From: a virus
Lineage: Duplodnaviria > Heunggongvirae > Uroviricota > Caudoviricetes
Length of the DNA: 39,382 nt
Virus record (IMG/VR): IMGVR_UViG_2923296884_000001
Strand: one strand, 5' to 3'
In this document: one piece after another, positions 16,230 to 38,320 of the stretch
Layout: every line of letters starts with the position of its first letter
How positions within the stretch are numbered: the first letter of the stretch is position 1
The notes under the pieces: generated by a model
What the model was told of the DNA's origin: nothing
Database searches by the model: none
What the model saw: the letters and a program-made list of their open reading frames with translations, nothing else
Translations under genes and position numbers: made by a program

Positions 16230-18107
16230 TTATGCTGCGGGATTATTGATTTCCAGCACCAGGCTGCCGATATCGACGCCATACGTTGCATTTTTGGTAA
16301 TATCCGTCAGCGTCAGTGCATTCAGCCCCAGTGTCAGACTGTCTTTTATGACCTGGAATGCCGGGCCAACCAGTCCATTCAGTTTCGGAGTAACCGTGGC
16401 ACTGCCGGCGGTGAACACCAGCTCCAGCGTCTGCCAGTCGTTACTGTAATTCCCGAACTCGCCCAACTTTGTGTTTCCGGCTTTCTTGTGATGCATCAGA
16501 TTCAGTTTGCCGTCTGTGGTCTGGGTGAAGAACGACATCAGGAACGGGTTACCAGTCCCGGTCATCGCCACGACGTCAGGTAACGCTACATCGGTATACA
16601 GATAAATTCCCAGACCGAACTGGTTGTTGGTCAGTGCGCCTGACAGTCGAAACTTACAGCTCAGTCTGCCACCCCGTGTCAGCAGGGAGACTGCGTCATC
16701 CACCGGGCGCGTCAGGGACCAGGCTTTATTGCTCTGCTTGGCGATCTTAAATACACCATCTGACAACTGAATTCCGCCATTCTTAATGCTCCAGCCCTGC
16801 GCAGCAGCATCTCCGGCTGTCGGCAACAGGGAGATTGTGCGTACGGATGCATCTTCAGACGGCCCCGATGGCGTGTCGCCGCCGGGCGAGGGTTTGATTT
16901 CCGGTGCCTTACCACTGATGAAGGCTGAGGTGCGCCCGGCTGCGTTCAGAATAGCGGTTGCCATACGATCCGGAATAATGCTCCTGCGCGCCCATGAACT
17001 GAAATGTGTCGGGCGGTTTGATGATACCCAATTACCATTACTACGGGATTGCGCGCCGTAATAACCTGCATCAGCAATATCCGGGTCTTCTGCCGGTAAG
17101 TTGGTGGGCGTGTTGTTGCCGTTACCGTCGGTCATGAACGGCACAAAGAAAACGTTGTCGCTCTCCCTGTTTTTGTACGCGCCGTAGACGGAGTCATACT
17201 GTGTGCCGTATGTGTTTTTCCAGTAATACGTCGTGTCGCCACAAATCCACGGTACAACTGCAGCACTGCCGCCATGGCACTGCGCGTTAAATCCGGAAAG
17301 GTCAGTACGGAACTGCTTCAGCATGGCCGTGAACAGGTCCGGTTGCTGTGCGTAGGTGGCAGCGCTCATGTCAAATTCGCCCTGCATCCAGCACACCGCC
17401 AGCAACACATTTTTCGGGTTCTTCTGTAATGCCGCTTTGGTGCGTGCGATCAGGTCCTGATATAACGGTTTACCCACACCCCAGCGTGCCGAATCCTGGC
17501 TGGCCCCCGTGTCCGCACTGAATGTCCCCTCCGCGCCCTGGGTGAATGCCGAACCACCACGACAGCATGGTACCAGCAGGATCCCCGCGTTATTCGGGAT
17601 ATACGGAAGCAGTTTTTTGGCAATATGTAAGCCCTGGCCGACACAGCCGTACTGCCCTTTGCTCAGGTCTGCCTTCGGATGATTCAGTGCGCTCATATCC
17701 TGAACATCATGCAGGCAGTGGTCTGCCGGAATGATGTCGTTAAATGCGCATGCTTTACCACCGGGAGTCACTGTGTTGCGACGGGCCAGTTGCTTAATGC
17801 GTGGGTGGGGCGCATCGTAAGAATCCGGCAGCGGCATTCCCTCACCATATGACATGGCATTGGATTGACCAGCAAGTACCACCACGTAATACCACTCCGG
17901 CACGCTGCCGTGCTGGGGGGAATCAGGTGAGATGTCTGTAGTGCCATCGGCCACCATTGCCTGCATTAGATACCACGGGGTGCCGGGTTCGTAGGCAACC
18001 CGCGTCTCCCCCTGAAGATGCCACCCTTTCGCAAGATGTTCATTCACCTTTTGAGTCAGTTCAGCCTGTGTCATGGCTGTAATCAGTGCAAAGTTCTTAC
18101 TGGTCAT
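16230..18107 (-). CDS. SASA-domain carbohydrate esterase (sialate O-acetylesterase-like, NanS-p-like), 625 aa
   Basis: Contains VVVLAGQSNAMSYGEG (GQSN motif) and WMQGEFD, typical of the SASA esterase family, plus a ~300-aa C-terminal domain; start overlaps the o-spanin stop (ATGA). Confidence 0.75.
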   Translation of the reverse strand: MTSKNFALITAMTQAELTQKVNEHLAKGWHLQGETRVAYEPGTPWYLMQAMVADGTTDISPDSPQHGSVPEWYYVVVLAGQSNAMSYGEGMPLPDSYDAPHPRIKQLARRNTVTPGGKACAFNDIIPADHCLHDVQDMSALNHPKADLSKGQYGCVGQGLHIAKKLLPYIPNNAGILLVPCCRGGSAFTQGAEGTFSADTGASQDSARWGVGKPLYQDLIARTKAALQKNPKNVLLAVCWMQGEFDMSAATYAQQPDLFTAMLKQFRTDLSGFNAQCHGGSAAVVPWICGDTTYYWKNTYGTQYDSVYGAYKNRESDNVFFVPFMTDGNGNNTPTNLPAEDPDIADAGYYGAQSRSNGNWVSSNRPTHFSSWARRSIIPDRMATAILNAAGRTSAFISGKAPEIKPSPGGDTPSGPSEDASVRTISLLPTAGDAAAQGWSIKNGGIQLSDGVFKIAKQSNKAWSLTRPVDDAVSLLTRGGRLSCKFRLSGALTNNQFGLGIYLYTDVALPDVVAMTGTGNPFLMSFFTQTTDGKLNLMHHKKAGNTKLGEFGNYSNDWQTLELVFTAGSATVTPKLNGLVGPAFQVIKDSLTLGLNALTLTDITKNATYGVDIGSLVLEINNPAA

Positions 18108-24813: not shown

Positions 24814-25859
24814 TGAGCAGAAAAAATAAAAAAGTGCGCATGAGTTCACGCATTGATCTCGCTGATGCGCTCAGGAAAGAATCATCGCTCAGTGCATTCA
24901 CATTTGATGGTCCTTATCGCCTGACCGGGCATGACCTGCTGGACAATATGTACTGTGCTGATAACGGGCGGTGGTATGAAACCCCGGTGGACTGGTACGG
25001 TCTGGCAAGAGCAGCCCGGCAAACGTCCTGGCATCAGTCTGCGCTTTACTTTAAGCGCAATGTATTACTCGGTTGCTACATCCCGCACCCGCTGCTTTCC
25101 CGGCAGGATTTCTCGGCGCTGGCGCTGGACTGGTTTGTGTTCGGTAACGCATTCCTTGAGCTTCGAAGCAATATGCTCGGCGAACCGCTTAAATTACGGC
25201 ACGCCCTGGCGAAATATATGCGACGCGGAAGCGATCTTGAATCATGGTGGTATGTGCAGGATGGCAAGGACGCGTTTCAGTTTCGTCCTGGCAAAGTGTG
25301 CCACCTGATGAATCCGGATATTAACCAGGAAATCTACGGCATGCCGGAATATCTTGGCGCATTACTCTCGGCCAGCCTTTCTCATTCGGCGGACATGTTC
25401 AGAAAACTGTACTACGACAACGGATCCCACGCCGGGTGCATCATCTACATCGGTGCAGCGCAGGTAAACCGCGAAAGCATGGACTCCCTGAAAGAAACGC
25501 TACAGGGGGCACGTGGTGGTGGTGCGTTTAAAAACGTGCTCATTCATGCGCCCAACGGGGGCAAAGAGGGGGTGCAAATTTTGCCGTTCCAGCAGATCAC
25601 CGCAAAAGATGAATTCATGAATGTTAAGGCGGCATCCCGTGATGATGTGCTGGCTGCGCACCGCGTTCCGCCGCAACTGATGGGGGCGATGCCGGGCGAA
25701 AAAAGTGCGTTTGGCGATGTGGAGAAGGCAGCGCGGGTTTACGCAATTAACGAGCTGATGCCCGTCATGGAGGCTATGAAGCACATCAATGACTGGCTTG
25801 GCGAAGAGGTGATCCGTTTTAACTCTTATGCTCTTCTTGATGAAAAAACAGCCCCGTGA
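24813..25859 (+). CDS. Q: portal protein Q
   Basis: 348-aa ORF with P2 gpQ similarity; start overlaps the P stop (TGATGA). Confidence 0.93.
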   Translation: MSRKNKKVRMSSRIDLADALRKESSLSAFTFDGPYRLTGHDLLDNMYCADNGRWYETPVDWYGLARAARQTSWHQSALYFKRNVLLGCYIPHPLLSRQDFSALALDWFVFGNAFLELRSNMLGEPLKLRHALAKYMRRGSDLESWWYVQDGKDAFQFRPGKVCHLMNPDINQEIYGMPEYLGALLSASLSHSADMFRKLYYDNGSHAGCIIYIGAAQVNRESMDSLKETLQGARGGGAFKNVLIHAPNGGKEGVQILPFQQITAKDEFMNVKAASRDDVLAAHRVPPQLMGAMPGEKSAFGDVEKAARVYAINELMPVMEAMKHINDWLGEEVIRFNSYALLDEKTAP

Positions 25860-25876
25860 TGGGGCTGTCCTTTTTA
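25848..25876. terminator. bidirectional rho-independent terminator between convergent Q and the 174-aa gene
   Basis: ACAGCCCC-gtgat-GGGGCTGT stem-loop with an A-run upstream and T-run downstream. Confidence 0.65.
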
Positions 25877-26398
25877 CCAGAGTTGAACCATTTTCTGGGT
25901 GCCGTCAGGCTTGAGATTATCAATTTCAGAGAGAACGTAATATTGAATGGCTTCACAAACGGTGGTGTAGGGTGAATTACCTTCTTTAAGTGGCACGATA
26001 TTATTATTAACGCGAACCTGTATTTCATCGTTATACATTGCGATCGAAACAGGCGTGTGCACGAACGCGACTTCGCCAGGTGTGTCGTCAACCACCGTTT
26101 CAATACTAAAAGTCAGTTTTCGCTCATCATTGCTGCCCCGTGCTTTGGGGGTAGCGGCAGGGATCTGGGATAAAGGCATTCTGCGAAATCCTTCGGCTGC
26201 TTCCAGTCCGCATGAAACGTAATGCTGGCGATTACCGTCGCTATCTGTCCAGGTCTGTGATGGCAGCTCCAGCGAGATTTCATAAGCATCAACAATGCCC
26301 TGGGCAAGGCGTACAAGCGGGGTCAGATCTTCATTGCGGCGAAAGCTCTCCTTTACCTGCTCCCGTTTTTCTCTTAACTGCTTGTAATTAATGACCAT
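25874..26398 (-). CDS. hypothetical protein (about 174 aa), orphan gene between Q and the early-operon terminator
   Basis: ORF 25874..26437 with start refined to the ATG about 26398 (MVINYKQLREK...) preceded by a GGAGG SD; lower GC than neighbours; no family recognised. Confidence 0.6.
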   Translation of the reverse strand: MVINYKQLREKREQVKESFRRNEDLTPLVRLAQGIVDAYEISLELPSQTWTDSDGNRQHYVSCGLEAAEGFRRMPLSQIPAATPKARGSNDERKLTFSIETVVDDTPGEVAFVHTPVSIAMYNDEIQVRVNNNIVPLKEGNSPYTTVCEAIQYYVLSEIDNLKPDGTQKMVQLW

Positions 26399-26495
26399 AA
26401 GACAGCCTCCATTGATTTCTTTGCTCGTATTTTGCACTTATGAAGTATGGTCGGCAAGGTGCCGTATCGCTGACGCGCTTCGCTTGTCTGCTGCT

Positions 26496-26524
26496 TCGCC
26501 GGGGCATAAAAAATTTATGCCCCG
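26496..26524. repeat. 29-bp perfect palindrome GCCGGGGCATAAA-aaa-TTTATGCCCCGGC
   Basis: Read directly from the sequence; lies in the ~500-bp noncoding stretch upstream of the 174-aa gene. Confidence 0.7.
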
Positions 26525-26930
26525 GCTCTCCAGCTCCTGTATCAATCAGATAATTTCACGACGCCTTCCAGTTTATCGCCACCATCGACGGTCAGACTCT
26601 TACGCAATTCCACCGCGTTGACTGCATGTTCTCGCTGCCTCAGTGCGATTTTGACGGCCTTACCTTTCACCCCATCAAATCAAAAGCCCTCACGCCTTTT
26701 TCATGCTCAGCGTGAGAAATATGGCCATTCTGTTGTGTCTCTGCGACATCGTTCAGGGAATGCTATTTACCCCCTGAAACGCGGGCTGTTCCCCCGTCAC
26801 CTGCGCGCAGAAAAAGCGCGTTTTTTTGTGCACGCACGGATCCTTGACGGATCCAGCCGCCATGCGGGCCGGAAGGGTAAAAAGTCGTTCAAAAAAATTG
26901 TGCAAATTTGTGCACTTTTGTGCAAACAAA

Positions 26931-26956
26931 AAGCGCCCCTGAGGCGCTTTAGTGTT
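26931..26956. terminator. terminator of the leftward early/accessory operon (bidirectional stem-loop)
   Basis: AAGCGCC-cctga-GGCGCTT flanked by A/T runs, about 30 bp after the last minus-strand gene; preceded by three TTGTGCA direct repeats (26899-26930). Confidence 0.6.
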
Positions 26957-26984
26957 TTATAGGTTGTGTATATTTGCTGGGTCC

Positions 26985-27248
26985 TTATCCTGCTGTGCTT
27001 TCAACTGATGAGGGGAACAAAATCTTTTCATCAAACCCTGCATTCATATCATGGACAGCAACACACCAATCCATTGACGAACGATTATCAAGAGCCTCCA
27101 TGATTTCATCCATGCGGCGTAGGTCATACAGGTAAATGCTTTTATCGCCAATGGTGTAAAAACCAATTTTTTTCGGTGATGGACAGCGATCAAGAACGTC
27201 CTGTAATTCGCTCAACCATGCTTGTTCTTTTTTTGTCAAAGTTGCCAT
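26985..27248 (-). CDS. hypothetical protein (87 aa)
   Basis: Start ATG at 27248 with strong SD GAAAGGAG; packed TGAtATG against the upstream gene. Confidence 0.6.
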   Translation of the reverse strand: MATLTKKEQAWLSELQDVLDRCPSPKKIGFYTIGDKSIYLYDLRRMDEIMEALDNRSSMDWCVAVHDMNAGFDEKILFPSSVESTAG

Positions 27249-27249
27249 A

Positions 27250-27690
27250 TCACTCTCCTTTCCCATGAAGCATAGCGGCGCGGCAGGCGTTCCATATTTC
27301 GGCAGCAATATAGCGCTCGCTATCGGTTAATTTGTACGTGGAAACATAGCCAGAGAGCATTTCTACGTTTTCCGGAGTTGCTTCTTCCGGCACTACCGGC
27401 GCTGGCAAGGCAGCGTGATAGTAGAGTGGCATAGTTTTGTACAGTGGTTCGCCAGGACTTCCGTCAGCCTGATTCCATTCTTCAACCCAGGCATCAACAA
27501 CCGCTTTGCTGGTTGATACATGTTCTTCTGAATCTACATTTTGTCCTGATATACAGAACATAACTGCCTCTGCTTCCAGCGATGCCAGAGCAATTTCATA
27601 AGCCCGACGCTCAATATTGTCTCGGACGTCCAGGCTGCCTATGCGCTCTTTGATTTCTTTAATCAGTTCTTTGTCGGTAAAAGTGGTCAT
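27250..27690 (-). CDS. hypothetical acidic protein (146 aa)
   Basis: Start ATG at 27690 (MTTFTDKEL...) with SD AAAGGAG. Confidence 0.6.
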   Translation of the reverse strand: MTTFTDKELIKEIKERIGSLDVRDNIERRAYEIALASLEAEAVMFCISGQNVDSEEHVSTSKAVVDAWVEEWNQADGSPGEPLYKTMPLYYHAALPAPVVPEEATPENVEMLSGYVSTYKLTDSERYIAAEIWNACRAAMLHGKGE

Positions 27691-27691
27691 A

Positions 27692-28006
27692 TCAATCTCC
27701 TTTGGTACCAATGTTTACAGCCTGGTAAGCCTCTTTGAGCACCCAGTCAACAGCGTCTTTCCATGCTCCGGTTTCGACTGGCGGATTCTCACGCTTTACC
27801 TGTTCATAGAAACGCACCGCTCTAACCAGTCCATCTGACGGTTTTGCCTGTAGTGCAGCCTGAGCTATGCGGTATGCCTGGAGCATACGGGCGTCGTTGA
27901 TATCCATTCCGAACGGAATTTCTGATGATTGTGACTCTGCATCTTCAAGCCTGGCAATTTCTTTACGTAAGAAGTATTTCAACTCTTGTTTCTGTTTTCT
28001 GTTCAT
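27692..28006 (-). CDS. hypothetical protein (104 aa)
   Basis: ATG at 28006 overlaps the upstream stop (ATGA). Confidence 0.6.
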
Positions 28007-28335
28007 GCGTTTTTTTCCTTTTTGTCTGTCACTTCTTTCCTGATAATTTCATTGCACAAATCCACGCACTCATTGCAGATGTAAACAGACGGTCCGGCAA
28101 TCACCTTTGTGACTTCGTACTGGGATTTATTGCAGAAGCTGCAATAAACCGTCTTCTCGCCTGAAGTCCATGTTTTGCTGGTTTCGCCAGACATCAGTTG
28201 TTTGAGGTCTTTTTCACGACGAAGAACTATCTGGCCACATTCAGCTATTTTTTGGATGTTGACATTTTCTTCTTTCGCCAGCGCTTCCATCCGCTCAATC
28301 AGTCGCTGCGCTTTTTCTCTGTCAATGTGTTGCAT
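28003..28335 (-). CDS. small protein with a C-terminal ClpX-type C4 zinc finger
   Basis: C-terminus [36 protein letters not shown] closely matches the ClpX N-terminal zinc-binding domain (CSFCGK...[15 protein letters not shown]); strong SD AAGGGGGA. Confidence 0.7.
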
Positions 28336-28398
28336 TGTGTCCCCCTTGTTTATGCTCCCGGGTTAAAGTCATCAGGGCGGATGCGCCCTGATGTTGTG

Positions 28399-28710
28399 TT
28401 ATTCGGGAAATAACGCCCGGATATTTCCGGCCATCTGACTGGTTATCTGTGCGGCTGATACTGGCTGTGACGCGGGGCGTTCTGTCCTGGTTTGTGTCAT
28501 TGATAACGCCTCATCATCAGCCCATGCAGCCAGTCGGTAAGCCTCTGCCGGATTCATTTTCAGTAGTGCCAGCCCGGCCAGAAAAGCCACGCGTTGACCA
28601 CTTTTGCGGGCTTCTGGTGTAAGGCTGTCCAGCCAGGCGCATGCTTCGCCTTCGTTCTTGACGGCGGCGGGCTTCAGATAGAAACTTATCCGTCTGGTTG
28701 GTGTCGTCAT
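28399..28710 (-). CDS. parR: ParR-like partition adaptor (103 aa)
   Basis: ATG at 28710 four nt after the parM stop, SD AAGGAG; N-terminus ISFYLKPAAVKN...VAFLAGLALL resembles plasmid R1 ParR (IAFKLNPDVN...AALTAGLALY). Confidence 0.7.
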   Translation of the reverse strand: MTTPTRRISFYLKPAAVKNEGEACAWLDSLTPEARKSGQRVAFLAGLALLKMNPAEAYRLAAWADDEALSMTQTRTERPASQPVSAAQITSQMAGNIRALFPE

Positions 28711-28714
28711 TGGT

Positions 28715-29674
28715 TTACTCCTTGTCCATTGCGTACAGCCCATTAACCAGAGCAAACTGTGGCACCCCGTCCGCGATGAAAGTCGCATTAACTCCGCAGG
28801 CTTCGCGGATAGCGGGTGCCACAATCTCTGCCCCGCCACCGACAACCATCACCCGCCCGTAACCCGAAAAACCCGCCAGCGCGCGGATCACGCGTTGTTT
28901 CAGTGTTTCTTCCTTTTCACGAATAACCGCCATCAGGCTGGCGTAATGCGCGTCATTGTGGATGTGCTGGCGCAGCCAGGCTTCATCATGGCGATGTTCG
29001 ATAATGGTATTGGCGATGTGGTGACTGGTACGCATACCGTTAGTGGCCATCACCGACAGTACGGCATCGGCCATCAGGGAAACGCCTACGTGTGGATCGC
29101 AAAACACCTGGCTGATACCTGCCAGTTGTCCCTGAACCTTTGCCACATCCAGCGTGGTTCCGCCTAAATCCACAATCAGCAGGGATTCAAACGGACTCAT
29201 GTCAGCCAGTGCCTTAAAGCCAGCCGGAATGGATTCAGGCATAACCCGCACGTTACGGATAGTGAATGCTTCGCCGTTCTGGTACTCCACCGGGCGCATA
29301 ACGTTCGCTTTTTTGCGGTTGATGTTGGCCATGTCCGGCTGTGCGTTTGTGTCGAAATACTCGCTCAGTGGCAGGGTGACAACCACATCCACCTCCTGTG
29401 GCGTGATGCCTGATTTGACCAGCGCGTGATGAATGGCGATTACATTCACATCGCTGTACTGGTATTGCGTGTCGGTCGTCTGGACAAAGCGATCGCTAAC
29501 CGGATCAAAACCATAGCGCACGCCATCAAGCATGTAGTTCGCGGGCTGCATGCCACCGAACGGCGCAGACCATTCCGACTTGAAGCTGTTCGGGCTGATG
29601 GCGTTGCGGCGTTCGCCATTCTCAGTCCATGCCAGCTTGATGTTGGTGGAGCCGTCGTCGATACAAATTTTCAT
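28715..29674 (-). CDS. parM: ParM/StbA actin-like segregation ATPase
   Basis: 319 aa; MKICIDDGSTNIKLAW... with full-length similarity to plasmid R1 ParM (phosphate-1 motif DDGSTNIKL, VMPESIPAG, LIVDLGGTTLD, VVGGGAE). Confidence 0.9.
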   Translation of the reverse strand: MKICIDDGSTNIKLAWTENGERRNAISPNSFKSEWSAPFGGMQPANYMLDGVRYGFDPVSDRFVQTTDTQYQYSDVNVIAIHHALVKSGITPQEVDVVVTLPLSEYFDTNAQPDMANINRKKANVMRPVEYQNGEAFTIRNVRVMPESIPAGFKALADMSPFESLLIVDLGGTTLDVAKVQGQLAGISQVFCDPHVGVSLMADAVLSVMATNGMRTSHHIANTIIEHRHDEAWLRQHIHNDAHYASLMAVIREKEETLKQRVIRALAGFSGYGRVMVVGGGAEIVAPAIREACGVNATFIADGVPQFALVNGLYAMDKE

Positions 29675-29705
29675 GTCGCTTTTCCTTATGTTGATTAATT
29701 AATCG

Positions 29706-29816
29706 TTTACGGGATTCTGAAATCCCGTTTTTGCCTGTTTTGTGTGCGCTTCATATATCGCGGCGCGTTTTTTGCTCATTTACGGGATTTGTGAATCCCG
29801 TTTCTGTCTGTTTTTT
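29706..29816. repeat. two ~39-bp direct repeats, each with an ACGGGATT-nnnn-AATCCCGT palindrome; parC-like centromere or replication origin candidate
   Basis: Copies at 29706-29744 (in the A-parM gap) and 29779-29816 (within the last codons of A), 73 bp apart. Confidence 0.7.
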
Positions 29817-32573
29817 GTTTCCACTGGTCAGGCCACCCCGCAGCAGGTCTGCTTTGCGGCGGGCACGTTCAGTGGTTTCACTGATTCTCTGTGCGTGCTC
29901 TGCGTCGCGGATGGCGCGCAGCATGTCAGAAAGCACGGTAACGGGGGGGGTCATGGTGTTCTGGTCCTGCTGAAGTGTGGATGCCAGACGTGCGGCGGCT
30001 TCGGGGTCTGATGCCCCCAGCTGTTCCAGATAGCTGGCGACCGGGTTATGGCGGATCTCCGTGCTGCTTACGCCGTGATTACGGCTCAGGCGCTGCCAGA
30101 GCTGCGTGATTCGGCTGTCCGGGCGGGTATCCGGTTTGCGTACAATTTCAAATCCCTGCGGTGCAATGATGCTGCCGTCAACGTACAGGCTGCCGCCCCG
30201 TAACAGGTGCTGCATCTGCTGTTCACCGATATGCAGGCCGAGAGATTCGGCAGATTCCCGCCATTCTTTAGCGAGTAATTCGTGGTTATCAGGCAAAGGC
30301 CGCTGCTGTTTGCGGCTCTGTGTCCAGCTCTGCATTTCATCACTGCTGTTTTTTGCCTGTTTGTCACGCAGCGAACGCATCAGCGCCCGGCGTTCGTGCC
30401 GTTTCAGTGAGCGCATCCATTCGTTCACGTCAACGCCGTCAGGAAGCTGCGGCCACGGTGCTGGCCGTTCTTCCGGCTGTTCTGTCCCGTTGTTGTCCGT
30501 TTCCTGTACACGGGGACAGTTATTGCCACGAGTCCAAGGGGCGGCAGGGCCGCCCTGAAGGTCAAAACCATTTTCGCGGGCGCTGTCTTCCGCTTCCGGT
30601 TTACGTCTTACCAGCTTCCAGTTATCCGGATGCGTGCACACACGGGAGGATTCCCCGATGAGTGGTGACCAGATCCCGTAAATCTGTACGCTCTGTTCGC
30701 CGTAATCGTTCAGCTCATCTGCGAGGTCGTAGGCGGTGCGAATCAGGTAGTCTTTGCGTGGAACAAGTACGCCGCCCTGTTTTTCAATGTAGGTGGCAAA
30801 ACACCCGGCATCGGCGGCAGCGAGTACCGCATCCATTGCGTCATCTTTCAGTCGTTGCGGGCCTTCCGGGTTGCGTGCCATCTGGCTGGCAAGGCGGCGC
30901 AGTTCACGCCACACCTGACGGGAGGGGATGCCAAAGAACTGGAACTGGCGGACCCGATGAAGGCGCGCCCAGCCGATGGCGCGCTCCACACTCTCGGCCA
31001 TTGATTTTCCGGTTTCGTGGTCAACGCGTGGCTTGCCCGTTTTCGGGTCGATGCCATCCACGGCGCGGCTGTCCAGGTTCTTTCCGATGTAGGTCGCGAT
31101 ATAGCTGGTTGGTGTGCCTTTTGAGCCGTCGACATACTCCGCCTTAAAGCGCGGAGTAATATCATTGCCCAGCTCGTGGCGGTCTTCCTGAATGGCAATA
31201 TCGCGGGTATGGGACACAATGGTGTCGATTTCTTCCGGATGAGCAAAGACCATCATATGCCAGTGCACGGTGCCGTCATGGTGAGGCTCCACCGTGCGGA
31301 TGCCATACCAGCGAAGACCGTCGCGGTTCAGTTTTTTGCGGACCGCCGCAAAAAACGTGTTAACCAGGTAATAGCTGGAGTCGCGCATGGTGGCCCCGTT
31401 CCATTTGGGATTCGGATGACCGTTCTCTGTTGTGGCGTGGTATTTTGACGGGCAGGTGACAGTCAGAAACACCGCTTTGTCGCCACGGGCTTCGGCCAGA
31501 AGTTCCAGCCCCTTCATGGTGGCCATCATTTCTGCCTTACGGTGAACCGGGTTACTTACTCCCGCGTAATACACTGTCTCGAGATCAATCGTGAACCCGT
31601 CTTCGTTTTCCAGCATGAAACTTTTCAGGAAATCGCGTGTTTTCTCGCGCTGTGCGCGAAACTCGCTTAACGCGTCCTGGCTCAGATAGGGTGATGTTTT
31701 TCTGGAAACCAGACAGGCGGCGCGGAGTTGTTCTTCTCTCCACTCGCAACGTAACAGCCACAGTTTGCGTTTCCACCATTCCGCACAGGTCAGGCGAAGG
31801 ACTGCGCCCGGCAGCAGCTCCGTGTCCGGTTCGTTCCTCCGGTTTTTATCTGTTGTCAGTGCGTCATAATGTGGAGGCATGATGTGCAGGTGTAACGCCA
31901 TGCGGGCCAGCATCTGATACGCCTTCAGCGTTACATCCATGGTCAGCTCGCCATCTCTGGCACCAAAGCCATCACAGAGTTTTTCGAAGGTGCTGCTGAA
32001 CATCGCCGCCGTCATGGTGGCCAGCGTCTGTATCTGGTGTTTGTTGAGCTGCGGCAGGTAAAGCAAATCGTCCAGGCGTTCGCGTCCGGCAAGGGAGCGA
32101 TAACCCGGTGTCAGCCAGTGTCCGTCAGTGCGATCCAGACGTTCGAATATTTTGCGCAGGGTTCCGCGTGCATAGCGTTCCGCCTGCCAGCTCTTTTTGC
32201 CTTTCCGGCGATCGGCTTCCTGTTTTTTGCGCAGGAAGGAGAGGTGGCGAATAAGCGGATCGCGCAGATAGGACGGCAGCAGGCGCAGCGAGGCCATGGC
32301 TTCATCCACCGCGCCACGTGCCTGTTTTCTGGCTTCTCTGGCCAGTGTGATGGTTTTGTCCTGTTTTTCCTGTGCGTCCAGGCTTTTATTAATCAGGTTG
32401 CCCAGCGGCGTGGCGGAGAACGCCGCATCAGCCATTTCCTGGCGGCGCTCGTTCTCTGCCCGGTAGGCATCCAGCCAGGAGGAAAGCTCGGATTCAGGAG
32501 CGGGGATTCCCGTTCCTTCACGACCCACTGCGTGGCGCGGTTGTTGCCAGTCCCTGATGTACTCTGCCGTCAT
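29751..32573 (-). CDS. A: replication initiation protein A (rolling-circle endonuclease)
   Basis: 940-aa ORF with P2 gpA-type features; longer than P2 gpA (761 aa). Confidence 0.92.
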   Translation of the reverse strand: MTAEYIRDWQQPRHAVGREGTGIPAPESELSSWLDAYRAENERRQEMADAAFSATPLGNLINKSLDAQEKQDKTITLAREARKQARGAVDEAMASLRLLPSYLRDPLIRHLSFLRKKQEADRRKGKKSWQAERYARGTLRKIFERLDRTDGHWLTPGYRSLAGRERLDDLLYLPQLNKHQIQTLATMTAAMFSSTFEKLCDGFGARDGELTMDVTLKAYQMLARMALHLHIMPPHYDALTTDKNRRNEPDTELLPGAVLRLTCAEWWKRKLWLLRCEWREEQLRAACLVSRKTSPYLSQDALSEFRAQREKTRDFLKSFMLENEDGFTIDLETVYYAGVSNPVHRKAEMMATMKGLELLAEARGDKAVFLTVTCPSKYHATTENGHPNPKWNGATMRDSSYYLVNTFFAAVRKKLNRDGLRWYGIRTVEPHHDGTVHWHMMVFAHPEEIDTIVSHTRDIAIQEDRHELGNDITPRFKAEYVDGSKGTPTSYIATYIGKNLDSRAVDGIDPKTGKPRVDHETGKSMAESVERAIGWARLHRVRQFQFFGIPSRQVWRELRRLASQMARNPEGPQRLKDDAMDAVLAAADAGCFATYIEKQGGVLVPRKDYLIRTAYDLADELNDYGEQSVQIYGIWSPLIGESSRVCTHPDNWKLVRRKPEAEDSARENGFDLQGGPAAPWTRGNNCPRVQETDNNGTEQPEERPAPWPQLPDGVDVNEWMRSLKRHERRALMRSLRDKQAKNSSDEMQSWTQSRKQQRPLPDNHELLAKEWRESAESLGLHIGEQQMQHLLRGGSLYVDGSIIAPQGFEIVRKPDTRPDSRITQLWQRLSRNHGVSSTEIRHNPVASYLEQLGASDPEAAARLASTLQQDQNTMTPPVTVLSDMLRAIRDAEHAQRISETTERARRKADLLRGGLTSGNKKQTETGFTNPVNEQKTRRDI

Positions 32574-37937: not shown

Positions 37938-37978
37938 CTTCACCCTGTGGTGAAGACCGAAAAGAGGATACTCATCGT

Positions 37979-38320
37979 ATGGTGAACATGTCAAGAGATT
38001 ACGCCAAAAAACTAAAGGCGATCAGAAATGCGGAAAAACTTACACAATCTCAGTTTTCGCAAGTAACGGGGGTTTCTGTAGGGACTATAGGAAATTATGA
38101 GTCTGGATATAAACCTGCGCGAATTGAGGTTGTAGAAAAAGTAATCCAAGTCGAGCGATTCGAAAAATACACTATGTGGATACTTCACGACAAAACATTT
38201 CCCGCTGCCGGGCAGGTTGCACCGGCTCTCTCTCTTGATGGCTCTATTCAGTCGGAGGGCGATCAGGTTTCAATCGGCATTACCCAAAAATCACCCCGAT
38301 CAGGCCGCAATGTTGGCTGA
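37979..38320 (+). CDS. C: immunity repressor C (HTH, XRE-like)
   Basis: About 113 aa from the ATG at 37979 (SD AAGAGGA); HTH segment LTQSQFSQVTGVSVGTIGNYESG; lies immediately before int on the same strand. Confidence 0.75.
   Translation: MVNMSRDYAKKLKAIRNAEKLTQSQFSQVTGVSVGTIGNYESGYKPARIEVVEKVIQVERFEKYTMWILHDKTFPAAGQVAPALSLDGSIQSEGDQVSIGITQKSPRSGRNVG

Follow-up and report, generated by a model that had tools for sequence, protein, structure and literature searches.

Three coupled accessory genes at the early-operon tail of a P88-like prophage and their relatives in lambdoid and P22-like early regions

Gene content and setting of the block

The DNA analysed here, a stretch of 39,382 nucleotides that we call the window, is a P88-like prophage (Xuanwuvirus, P2 family) of uropathogenic E. 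coli. In the RefSeq annotation of the identical U15A prophage, a block of three small genes, here termed g1, g2 and g3, is located in the gpA-gpQ interval, gpA being the replication gene and gpQ the portal gene (Table 1). The gene order is gpA, parM, stbB (parR-like), a zinc-finger (ZnF) gene, g1, g2, g3 and a terminator. A preliminary description had presented the block as genes of 104, 146 and 87 aa directly downstream of the zinc-finger gene, packed with TGAtATG or ATGA junctions and strong ribosome-binding sites, and ending at a terminator. Most of this picture was borne out. All three are minus-strand ORFs, the 3' end of the ZnF gene overlaps the start of g1 (ATGA), the g1/g2 and g2/g3 junctions both read TGAtATG, and the block closes at a strong intrinsic terminator, the stability of which was reached by none of 200 shuffled sequences. 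Strong ribosome-binding sites were found for g2 and g3, which have the consensus AAGGAG, but not for g1, whose Shine-Dalgarno sequence is weaker (AAGGA, with a spacer of about 9-10 nt); for this reason, g1 probably depends for its translation on the overlap at ATGA.

The consensus sites of g2 and g3 are supplied by a 16-mer common to both junctions, AAAGGAGA[T/G]TGATATG, which occurs twice in the window against none expected from 100 shuffles. A 16-mer identical to AAAGGAGAGTGATATG was found 63 times across the fetched loci. Alternative TTG starts exist for g2 (21 nt upstream, giving 153 aa) and, also upstream, for g3 (giving 107 aa).

Table 1. Positions of the genes, protein modules and signals discussed in the text
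Feature	Position (nt)	Strand	Description
ZnF gene	28003-28335	minus	110 aa; C-terminal ClpX-type C4 zinc finger; Pfam PF06689 zf-C4_ClpX, E 6.8e-18; RefSeq WP_001163782
g1	27692-28006	minus	104 aa, near-neutral; head aa 1-57 with a 10-residue joint, tail Y aa 58-104; ends K-G-D-stop
g1 3' part (tail Y)	27692-27837	minus	97.5% identical to vB_EcoS-689R5
g1/g2 boundary AAAGGAGATTGATATG	27688-27703	minus	K-G-D codons doubling as Shine-Dalgarno, stop, 1 nt, start
g2	27250-27690	minus	146 aa from ATG, acidic (pI 4.6); chimera of head A, core B and tail C; ends K-G-E-stop
g2 head A	27592-27690	minus	aa 1-33; module-wise BLAST coverage
g2 core B	27385-27588	minus	aa 35-102; module-wise BLAST coverage
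g2 tail C	27253-27384	minus	aa 103-146; module-wise BLAST coverage
g2/g3 boundary AAAGGAGAGTGATATG	27246-27261	minus	canonical boundary, also seen in lambdoid, P22-like and P1-like phages before their g3 homologues
g3	26985-27248	minus	87 aa from ATG, acidic (pI 4.7); compact alpha/beta domain; ST64T Orf-87 / phrog_1714
Intrinsic terminator closing the block	26950-26930	minus (mRNA strand)	9-bp stem then UUUUUGUUU U-run; -16.3 kcal/mol, z = -4.3
Hairpin between stbB and ZnF gene	28370-28393	minus	perfect 10 bp, no U-run on the mRNA strand; -18.4 kcal/mol, z = -7.2

In P2, tin/old reside in the gpA-gpQ interval, which Rousset et al. 2022 (PMC9122126) defined as the P2 hotspot; the link to the tin/old hotspot that had been proposed for the block is thus correct as to position. 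Within this interval, the block occupies the gpA-proximal end, separated from gpQ by an ORF of 174 aa (orf174) and by non-coding sequence that is conserved. It forms the tail of the early/partition operon on the gpA side, to which it is translationally coupled, and does not adjoin cos. A search with the P2 cos 19-mer, allowing up to 3 mismatches, gave no match, and neither did an Rfam search of 25500-29900. The GC content of the block genes is 41-48%, compared with 55-57% for parM and gpA, which points to a foreign origin.

A consensus scan for promoter-like sites found four, against 3.8 expected, with none above chance; a 9/12 match within g1 was dropped as an internal promoter, since no more matches were found than chance would produce. 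The best minus-strand promoter lies upstream of cox. Given the translational coupling and the lack of a promoter-like site above chance, the block would be transcribed by read-through from the early replication/partition operon, from a Pe-like promoter near 37965-37994. Additionally, two 43-nt repeats with palindromes at 29703-29818 raise the possibility of a ParR-regulated promoter upstream of parM, near 29680-29750. With such a candidate promoter, the block might be expressed in the lysogen and could then benefit the host.

Family relationships of the three proteins

In the preliminary description, no family had been recognised for any of the three genes. This holds for Pfam, NCBIfam, PADLOC and PDB sequence searches, which gave no match for g1, g2 or g3, and PDB searches with single sequences and profiles returned nothing below E = 0.05. 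It does not hold for PHROG families and shared modules. g1 matches phrog_26213 and phrog_660 (the latter at E 9.5e-28), g2 matches phrog_5117, phrog_660 and phrog_60 (phrog_660 at E 3.4e-22), and g3 matches phrog_1714 over residues 1-87 of 87 (E 1e-50).

Sequence alignment revealed conserved joints (IALASLEAE(A/P)V, PAPVVPE and ACRAAML.GKGE) at which the heads, cores and tails of g1 and g2 are swapped. The two proteins appear to be built from a head, an 'IALASLEAE' joint, an optional core, a 'PAPVVPE' joint and a tail ending in K-G-E/D. The g1 head is 37% identical to the head of ST64T Eaa1 (E 3e-6), and the g2 tail is 39% identical to the Eaa1 tail (E 7e-6), including its 'PAPVVPEE...WNACRAAML' sequence; the 'IALASLEAEP' joint is also shared. 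Eaa1 of P22/ST64T is a single protein of 271 aa, whereas here its pieces are spread over g1 and g2, and the central parts are unrelated. Tail Y of g1 is 80-85% identical to the C-termini of Ead/Ea22-like proteins bearing PF13935. Module-wise BLAST found PF13935-bearing proteins that contain both the g2 core and the g1 tail, and a fusion of DUF551 to the body of g2. Both genes thus share phrog_660, the joints and the ST64T Eaa1 matches by which we judged module sharing with the Eaa/Ead/Ea22 pool. On these sequence relationships, g1 and g2 are chimeric members of that hypermosaic pool, which populates lambdoid and P22-like early regions.

Ea22 of lambda and Stx phages (PF13935 Ead_Ea22, exo-xis region) resembles g1 and g2 in being an early-operon accessory gene with a mosaic head/core/tail structure. 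The two also share a C-terminal K/R-G-E motif (Dydecka et al. 2020), present as HGKGE at the end of g2 and as a conservative variant, TKGD, in g1, and an identical AAAGGAGAGTGA boundary; lambda ea22 itself ends AAAGGAGAGTGAgATC. In the block, the K-G-E/D end of both proteins is encoded by AAAGGAGAn, which doubles as the Shine-Dalgarno sequence of the next gene. At the AAAGGAGAG boundary, the K-G-E motif would in this way provide the Shine-Dalgarno site for g3 translation. This may offer a simple explanation of a motif described in Ea22 as 'of unknown significance': it could encode the ribosome-binding site and boundary of a coupled downstream gene. Unlike Ea22, neither g1 nor g2 contains the PF13935 region, and neither shows pairwise similarity to the lambda protein. 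No Pfam match to the PF13935 N-terminal/coiled-coil profile was obtained for either at E <= 1, and in relatives that match covers the N-terminal part (for example residues 2-91 of P0086), which is missing from g1 and g2. BLASTP against lambda Ea22 gave E = 3.4 for g1 and 33 for g2, so direct homology was dropped, and the solved Ea22 C-terminal domain showed no sequence match to either protein.

The third gene is of another kind. g3 is 60% identical over its full length to Orf-87 from the P22-like ea region of Salmonella phage ST64T, a protein of the same 87 aa, and on this evidence is a member of the conserved Orf-87 family, marked by the motif RCPSPxKxGxxT...YDxR and by invariant residues in a 34-sequence alignment. 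Its AlphaFold2 (AF2) model is confident (pLDDT 91.6); no PDB relative of the predicted fold was found, and Pfam detected no fused domain in the few longer members of the family. Relatives of g3 are present in genomes of Chivirus, Vequintavirinae and Nonanavirus, which are virulent phage groups.

The surroundings of g3 are regular in spacing and variable in content. Across 79 IMG/VR loci, the preceding ORF ends exactly 1 nt upstream of g3 in 74, with 33 different upstream ORFs, and the next ORF begins exactly 10 nt past g3 in 67; 41 different downstream sequences were called, including three spurious ORFs of 42 aa that run across the terminator of the P88 type. The same 1-nt spacing is seen in lambdoid and P22-like VSe13 contexts, and the 10-nt spacing in ST64T and lambdoid contexts. 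The g3 copy described here differs from ST64T Orf-87 in lying in a P2-family prophage as the last gene before a terminator, with the Eaa-type genes upstream rather than downstream.

In many loci, true Ea22-like genes lie directly before g3. We observed that g3 repeatedly adjoins Eaa/Ea22-type genes even at 63% identity, and in one case forms a read-through fusion. This recurrent adjacency could reflect a functional partnership rather than full independence. Taken further, the g3 family might represent an unrecognised compact fold with a general effector role in the lytic cycle of Enterobacterales phages, such as inhibition of a housekeeping or defence factor of the host. On this proposal, g3 would stay beside hypervariable Eaa/Ea22 genes because they act jointly, as a constant effector with a variable target-recognition partner, and the conserved AAAGGAGAGTGATATG boundary would be a device to swap the partner while keeping the coupling to g3. 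We consider this extended proposal quite unlikely.

All three are real genes, as pN is far below pS against homologues for each of them (0.025/0.148 for g1 against P88) and the exact proteins occur on many public contigs (464 for g1, 201 for g2 and at least 1000 for g3), with a close g2 variant on at least 999. That the block is evolutionary debris, a set of recombination scars without current function, is accordingly hard to credit and seems to us extremely improbable. RefSeq calls g2 a pseudogene fragment, with PGAP annotating only a 41-codon 5' piece as 'incomplete', and the chimeric make-up of g1 and g2 and the poor AF2 model of g2 (pLDDT 53.8) would suit such a view. It is countered by the intact ORFs with their consensus Shine-Dalgarno sites, by the selection and contig counts above, and by g3 itself, which is conserved between genera, keeps invariant residues and has a confidently predicted fold. 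The g3 family, being very common, confidently folded, without a PDB relative and present in both temperate and virulent groups, would be a cheap target for functional screens.

Separability and exchange with lambdoid phages

Comparison with sibling prophages shows how loosely the three genes are held together. At this locus, P88 carries only g1. AZ184 carries g1 and g3; g2 is missing exactly, and the two boundary repeats overlap by 36 bp. In PhiR44_2, the flanks on either side match at 99.2-99.9% identity, but g2 is swapped exactly at the boundaries. UTI89 and PhiR44_2 have a different cassette in place of g2, and AH21B060 also carries another cassette; the allelic cassette in the g2 slot belongs to the XF1762 family, with a sub-threshold Pfam match to Mom (E 1.3e-4). 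Moreover, the lambdoid phage vB_EcoS-689R5 shares g3, g2 and the g1 tail, matching window positions 26982-27837 at 97.5% identity (blastn). From this alignment, the 3' part of g1 is a likely zone of homologous crossover.

Because siblings carry g1 alone, g1 with g3, or another cassette in the g2 slot, and because of the lambdoid sharing at 97.5%, g1, g2 and g3 appear to be separable modules exchanged with lambdoid phages rather than an obligate system. The three-gene unit of the preliminary description therefore does not survive as a coherent one. Neither are these conserved P2-like early genes present in all relatives, as synteny comparison showed P88, AZ184, UTI89, PhiR44_2 and AH21B060 to differ. 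Early-operon homologues were found in the P22-like ea region, in lambdoid int-xis/exo regions and in one nin region.

The same comparisons bear on the proposal that the ZnF protein, g1, g2 and g3 make up a single complex through which host ClpX is redirected or blocked. All four genes are coupled by ATGA and TGAtATG junctions, the ZnF domain is a genuine zinc-binding domain of ClpX, and each of the five ZnF-carrying P88-like relatives compared (P88, AZ184, UTI89, AH21B060 and PhiR44_2) has a g1-type gene paired with its ZnF gene; other StbA loci lack any ZnF gene. However, the siblings that keep ZnF and g1 have g2 and g3 missing or replaced, and there are hundreds of phage contexts in which g2 and g3 are found without a ZnF gene. 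At most, the ZnF and g1 pair could be a unit, and we strongly doubt a four-protein complex.

Proposed role and comparison with hotspot cargo

On balance, we favour the view that the block consists of three separable accessory genes from the lambdoid/P22-like ea-region pool, recombined into a P88-like early operon, and most likely acting singly in the early lytic phase by binding host or competitor proteins. The comparisons indicate that the genes entered a P88-like prophage of the P2 family at the gpA-proximal end of its variable locus near cos, and that the route was recombination at conserved linkers, namely the 3' part of g1 and the AAAGGAGAnTGATATG boundary. The latter combines the K-G-E/D C-terminus, the Shine-Dalgarno sequence, the stop and the next start. 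The products carry no enzymatic motif and no curated domain match, and are predicted to be small soluble proteins. Their binding to host or competitor proteins, from which host takeover or counter-defence could follow, is a step that we purely infer. We regard the block as ordinary mosaic cargo and not as a new three-gene system; it illustrates clearly, at base resolution, how lambdoid and P2-family phages exchange genes through conserved linkers. A toxin-antitoxin reading was dropped, as no nuclease or enzymatic motif and no curated domain match were seen and the middle gene is freely lost.

The main alternative role, by analogy with lambda Ea22, would be modulation of the lysis-lysogeny decision. 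A literature search on the functions of Eaa/DUF551 or ea-region genes returned only Ea22 papers. Lambda Ea22 is an early, mosaic protein that forms tetramers, and its C-terminal domain, which is variable and acidic, has been proposed to bind a host protein (PMC10834534, PMC7093339); it is experimentally pro-lysogenic despite high sequence diversity (PMC7093339). In this alternative, g1 and g2, and perhaps g3, would bias the decision or induction through a host factor, as Ea22 does in lambda and Stx phages, and the modules, K-G-E/D end and early-operon location that g1 and g2 have in common with Ea22-type genes are consistent with it. Nonetheless, the Ea22 precedent holds only through module sharing, since g1 and g2 lack direct Ea22 similarity and a PF13935 match; the Ea22 N-terminal and coiled-coil region, needed for activity according to published work, is missing from both. 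Furthermore, the P2-type switch (C/Cox) is unlike that of lambda. Virulent groups have no lysogeny decision, and yet they carry g3 relatives. We therefore hold a modulator role to be unlikely, although it deserves some weight beside the accessory-binder view.

The hotspot position suggested another role, namely prophage anti-phage defence or superinfection exclusion of the tin/old type, expressed in the lysogen. About one third of the tested systems in the hotspot of Rousset et al. were protective, loci of this class show an enrichment of defence genes (PMC9122126), and the locus here is variable and low in GC, with the possible par promoter as a source of lysogen expression. The block nevertheless shares only the gpA-gpQ interval with tin/old and other hotspot cargo. 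It has no homology to tin, old or PADLOC models (PADLOC-DB gave 0 matches at E <= 1 for g1, g2, g3, ZnF and orf174), and its genes are small, without an evident promoter of their own, and tightly coupled to the early operon at the gpA-proximal side instead of being placed next to cos. The homologues lie in early lytic operons of many phages, including the virulent groups, and the middle gene g2 is freely dispensable. A Pectobacterium P2-like prophage has a g3-like gene directly after gpA and a defence-like 2TM gene nearer the portal. A tin/old-like role thus finds no support in the early-operon tail position or the virulent relatives of g3, and we judge it very unlikely compared with the exchange of ea-region accessory genes that we favour.

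These observations suggest that part of the catalogued P2 defence-hotspot cargo is early-operon tail filled from lambdoid ea regions, and that such tails should be taken into account when candidate defence genes of these hotspots are counted. Rst_3HP ('hp + hp + hp', anti-P1) likewise consists of three hypothetical genes in the P2 hotspot; identity with it was rejected, as its proteins of about 330, 350 and 230 aa are unrelated in sequence to g1-g3 and no PADLOC match was obtained. The arrangement of the block is absent from the tested systems given in the main text of PMC9122126 and in the entries of its Table S2 covered here. It does appear among the catalogued hotspot cargo, as Table S5A of the same study lists StbA, Plasmid_stab_B, zf-C4_ClpX and four hypothetical proteins under the same WP accessions.

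Layout of the block and its place in the P2 hotspot

The window is a complete P2-family prophage of the P88-like group (Xuanwuvirus, Peduoviridae), whose integration site adjoins dmsA; a 1.5-kb query across the block (26900-28400) was 100% identical to chromosomal sequence of two urinary E. coli strains, U15A and U12A, and of S103EC, an isolate from a human. The gpA-like gene, parM, stbB, the ClpX-type zinc-finger gene (ZnF) and the three small genes g1, g2 and g3 run in this order on the minus strand, followed by a terminator (-16.3 kcal/mol, z = -4.3, then a U-run), a non-coding stretch and a 174-aa ORF, beyond which the portal gene Q lies on the opposite strand. The preliminary description gave the coordinates, sizes, junctions and terminator of the three-gene block correctly in every detail and left only the strand unstated. 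The ZnF/g1 junction is ATGA, and the g1/g2 and g2/g3 junctions are TGAtATG, both within a common 16-mer, AAAGGAGA[T/G]TGATATG, present in two copies in the window against zero expected. The GC content of the block is low (41-48% versus 55-57% for parM and gpA).

Features of the prophage considered here (window positions)
Feature	Position	Strand	Remark
Best minus-strand promoter	37994-37965	minus	upstream of cox
gpA-like replication endonuclease	29751-32573	minus
43-nt direct repeats	29703-29745; 29776-29818
parM	28715-29674	minus
stbB/parR-like	28399-28710	minus	PF10784
Hairpin	28370-28393
ZnF	28003-28335	minus	110 aa, PF06689
g1	27692-28006	minus	104 aa
g2	27250-27690	minus	146 aa
g3	26985-27248	minus	87 aa
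Three TTGTGCA motifs	26894-26924
Non-coding stretch	26470-26938		469 bp
Inverted repeat	26498-26526
174-aa ORF	25874-26398	minus	WP_000236495, phrog_5091
625-aa protein gene	16230-18107	minus

The suggested tin/old hotspot position was borne out, as the block lies between the replication gene gpA and the portal gene gpQ, the P2 hotspot of Rousset et al. 2022 (PMC9122126). The portion of their Table S5A considered contains exactly the accession set of the block, and the main text regards StbA loci as putative partition systems. The block arrangement is absent from the tested systems in the main text and in part of Table S2; a validated 'hp + hp + hp' system described there is unrelated to g1-g3. 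The block is an ordinary, already catalogued, uncharacterised piece of mosaic cargo.

Within this interval, g1-g3 are found at the gpA-proximal end, coupled to the genes before them; the number of promoter-like sites was no higher than expected by chance. A classical P2-like Pectobacterium prophage has neither parMR nor ZnF nor Eaa-type genes; in it, a member of the g3 family (60% identical; L096 3501-3749) comes first after gpA with a 3-nt gap, and further towards the portal is a gene similar to the AC1 TIR defence system's 2TM component. This layout suggests that the interval has two zones, one being the tail of the early operon and the other cos-proximal cargo under promoters of its own. 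The two 43-nt repeats, 81% identical and 73 bp apart, flank the gpA stop just upstream of parM, and each holds the palindrome ACGGGATT-N4-AATCCCGT. They are candidates for a parC-like centromere or a ParR operator/promoter; given the latter, expression of g1-g3 in lysogens is possible.

Mosaic genes and exchange at a conserved boundary

All three genes are real. For each, non-synonymous divergence from homologues is much lower than synonymous divergence: the pN/pS values are 0.025/0.148 for g1 against P88 and 0.006/0.041 for g2 against a lambdoid copy, and g3 compared with the Edwardsiella, Pectobacterium and Salmonella copies has a pN of 0.25-0.33 with saturated pS. The exact protein is carried by 464 public contigs for g1, 201 for g2 and at least 1000 for g3. 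Current RefSeq/PGAP cuts g2 to its first 41 codons as an 'incomplete' pseudogene (L004 20669-20791); since the 146-codon ORF, WP_032333640 in older RefSeq, is intact, this call is likely an annotation artefact due to the chimeric gene.

The preliminary description recognised no family for these genes. For g1 and g2 this stands in Pfam, NCBIfam, PADLOC and PDB sequence searches, which gave no match, and does not stand in PHROGs, where both match phrog_660, g1 additionally phrog_26213 and g2 additionally phrog_5117. A homologue search with g2 returned 2,638 proteins, many carrying PF13935 (Ead_Ea22) or DUF551, and BLAST against this set revealed a modular pattern: head A (aa 1-33), core B (35-102) and tail C (103-146) in g2, and a head differing from A (aa 1-57) and tail Y (58-104) in g1. 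Database proteins combine a PF13935 N-terminus with B and Y (e.g. P0086), or A and B with a C-like tail and DUF551 (e.g. P0002). In the alignment, three joints are conserved, IALASLEAE(A/P)V, PAPVVPE and ACRAAML.GKGE-stop, and all the rest is swapped at these joints. A single protein of the P22-like phage ST64T, Eaa1, is matched by both the g1 head (E 3e-6) and the g2 tail (E 7e-6), so that g1 and g2 are two members of the mosaic Eaa/Ead/Ea22 gene pool in shuffled form. Neither resembles lambda Ea22 itself. Strict PF13935 membership was rejected, as Pfam is silent on both.

DNA comparison resolved exchange between lambdoid and P2-family phages to the base, a point of modest interest. PhiR44_2 is 99.2-99.9% identical on both flanks, but the interval between its two boundary 16-mers is occupied exactly by another cassette, of 492 nt. 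In AZ184, g2 is exactly absent, and the alignment shows a 36-bp overlap of the boundary repeats, in line with the similarity of the first codons of g2 (MTTFTDKE) and g3 (MATLTKKE). P88 has g1 only, UTI89 and AH21B060 carry other cassettes, and the nin region of the lambdoid vB_EcoS-689R5 is 97.5% identical to 26982-27837, which spans g3, g2 and the g1 tail. The block is thus modular rather than one coherent three-gene unit; nor are these conserved P2-like early genes of all relatives, given the differing synteny of P88 and AZ184. The cassette in the g2 slot of UTI89 (L005 4404-4895) and PhiR44_2 (L001 6351-6842) encodes a 163-aa 'XF1762 family' protein, which ends in IKGE-stop, precedes g3 and matches the Pfam phage Mu Mom DNA-modification family below threshold (E 1.3e-4; 22.1 bits, cut-off 27.1).

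We surveyed the neighbours of g3 in 79 IMG/VR loci whose g3 copy is at least 97% identical. The ORF called upstream stops exactly 1 nt before g3 in 74 loci; the 33 distinct upstream ORFs include genuine lambda-type Ea22, XF1762-family, g1-like and g2-like genes and a 45-aa hydrophobic peptide. Downstream, the next ORF begins exactly 10 nt past g3 in 67 of the 79. Three of the 41 distinct downstream sequences, of 42 aa, are spurious calls that run over the P88-type terminator; of the real ones, almost all start MTTITKE/MTTFTDKE...IALASLEAEP. An Edwardsiella prophage with g3 at 63% identity shows the same spacing and downstream neighbour type. Among 5,426 complete E. coli genomes, the whole arrangement occurs in 7 and pieces in 2,783.

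Dydecka et al. reported that every Ea22 protein ends in K/R-G-E and called the significance unknown (PMC7093339). In the block, the K-G-E/D codons (AAA GGA GAG/GAT) form the AAGGAG Shine-Dalgarno of the following gene, and after them come TGA, a single base and ATG. The Ea22 K/R-G-E C-terminus coincides with a conserved nucleotide boundary, AAAGGAGAGTGA(T)ATG, that is, the Shine-Dalgarno, stop and start of a coupled downstream gene. The identical boundary 16-mer occurs 63 times in the fetched, non-independent loci. From the sequences, we propose, as a further point of modest interest, that the motif is best understood as a nucleotide linker, conserved because it would provide translational coupling and a recombination joint. 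Lambda ea22 (L009, lambda 29847-30395) ends AAAGGAGAGTGAgATC, keeping the boundary (…TGAgATC) with no coupled gene.

The g3 family and a possible early function

In contrast to the preliminary description, g3 does belong to a family, phrog_1714 (E 1e-50), which includes ST64T Orf-87 (60% identity). The family is coherent, non-mosaic and 80-90 aa long, with the invariant residues RCPSPxKxG..T..YD.R. A word-indexed search gave 143 clusters, all named ones from Enterobacterales, and a profile search of 1.84 billion representatives gave only 198 hits, almost all stand-alone. The AlphaFold2 model is confident (pLDDT 91.6; alpha-beta-beta-alpha-alpha-beta). The modest interest of this family lies in its being very common and confidently folded, with no structural relative in the PDB. 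One representative (P0407, 187 aa) appears to be an Ea22-like protein (…IRTAGIKVKGSD) fused by read-through to a distant g3-family domain, which shows that an Ea22-type gene and g3 stay adjacent at low sequence identity.

Homologues are placed in early operons in every context examined: the P22-like ea region, the lambdoid int-xis and exo regions plus one nin region, a P1-like phage, Chivirus (among nucleotide-metabolism genes), Vequintavirinae and Nonanavirus. We take the last three to be virulent groups. Because virulent phages keep the g3 family, a role in lysogen defence or the lysogeny decision is unlikely, at least for g3. None of the three proteins has an enzymatic motif or matches a curated domain model, and we regard all three as small and soluble, g2 (pI 4.6) and g3 (4.7) being acidic and g1 (7.9) near neutral. 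Together with the early contexts, the carriers taken to be virulent and the weak, sub-threshold Mom match of the alternative cassette, these properties favour proteins that would be expressed early, bind host or competitor proteins and serve host takeover or counter-defence, over the main alternative, Ea22-like developmental modulation. We lean slightly towards the overall account of identity, mosaicism, modular exchange and early binding; its first three parts are well supported, and the step to a function, which is much weaker, is by itself one we would sooner doubt than accept.

Other features of the prophage

The 63-nt gap between stbB and ZnF holds a GC-rich hairpin whose 10-bp stem is perfect (-18.4 kcal/mol, z -7.2). 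It lacks a U-run on the mRNA strand and scores as a terminator on the opposite strand, and may therefore be an attenuator, processing site or stabiliser. ZnF encodes a stand-alone protein with a 55-aa helical N-terminus and a bona fide ClpX C4 zinc-binding domain (E 6.8e-18), and the AAA+ module is absent. Among the P88-like phages examined, those that carry ZnF have a g1-type gene paired with it, and the ZnF product could act as a decoy in the recognition of substrates or adaptors by ClpX.

The non-coding stretch is kept in all P88-like relatives compared (92-97% in P88, UTI89, AH21B060 and AZ184; 99.9% in PhiR44_2) and probably holds the cos or packaging signals of this group; the P2 cos 19-mer was not found in it at up to three mismatches. 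It contains a 13-bp perfect inverted repeat, and the TTGTGCA motifs, with ~10 bp phasing, lie directly past the terminator. Directly beside the portal gene, the 174-aa ORF (GC 47.6%; no match in Pfam or PADLOC) is the gene of this locus that truly represents cos/portal-proximal cargo. It occurs in the window prophage and PhiR44_2, is missing from P88, UTI89 and AZ184, and is common in the part of Table S5A considered, with at least 167 mentions (PMC9122126).

A second cargo site lies between the lysis and tail-completion genes, where the 625-aa protein combines DUF1737, a SASA-type sialate O-acetylesterase domain and DUF6645, with no PADLOC match. This protein presumably resembles the NanS-p esterases of Stx phages.
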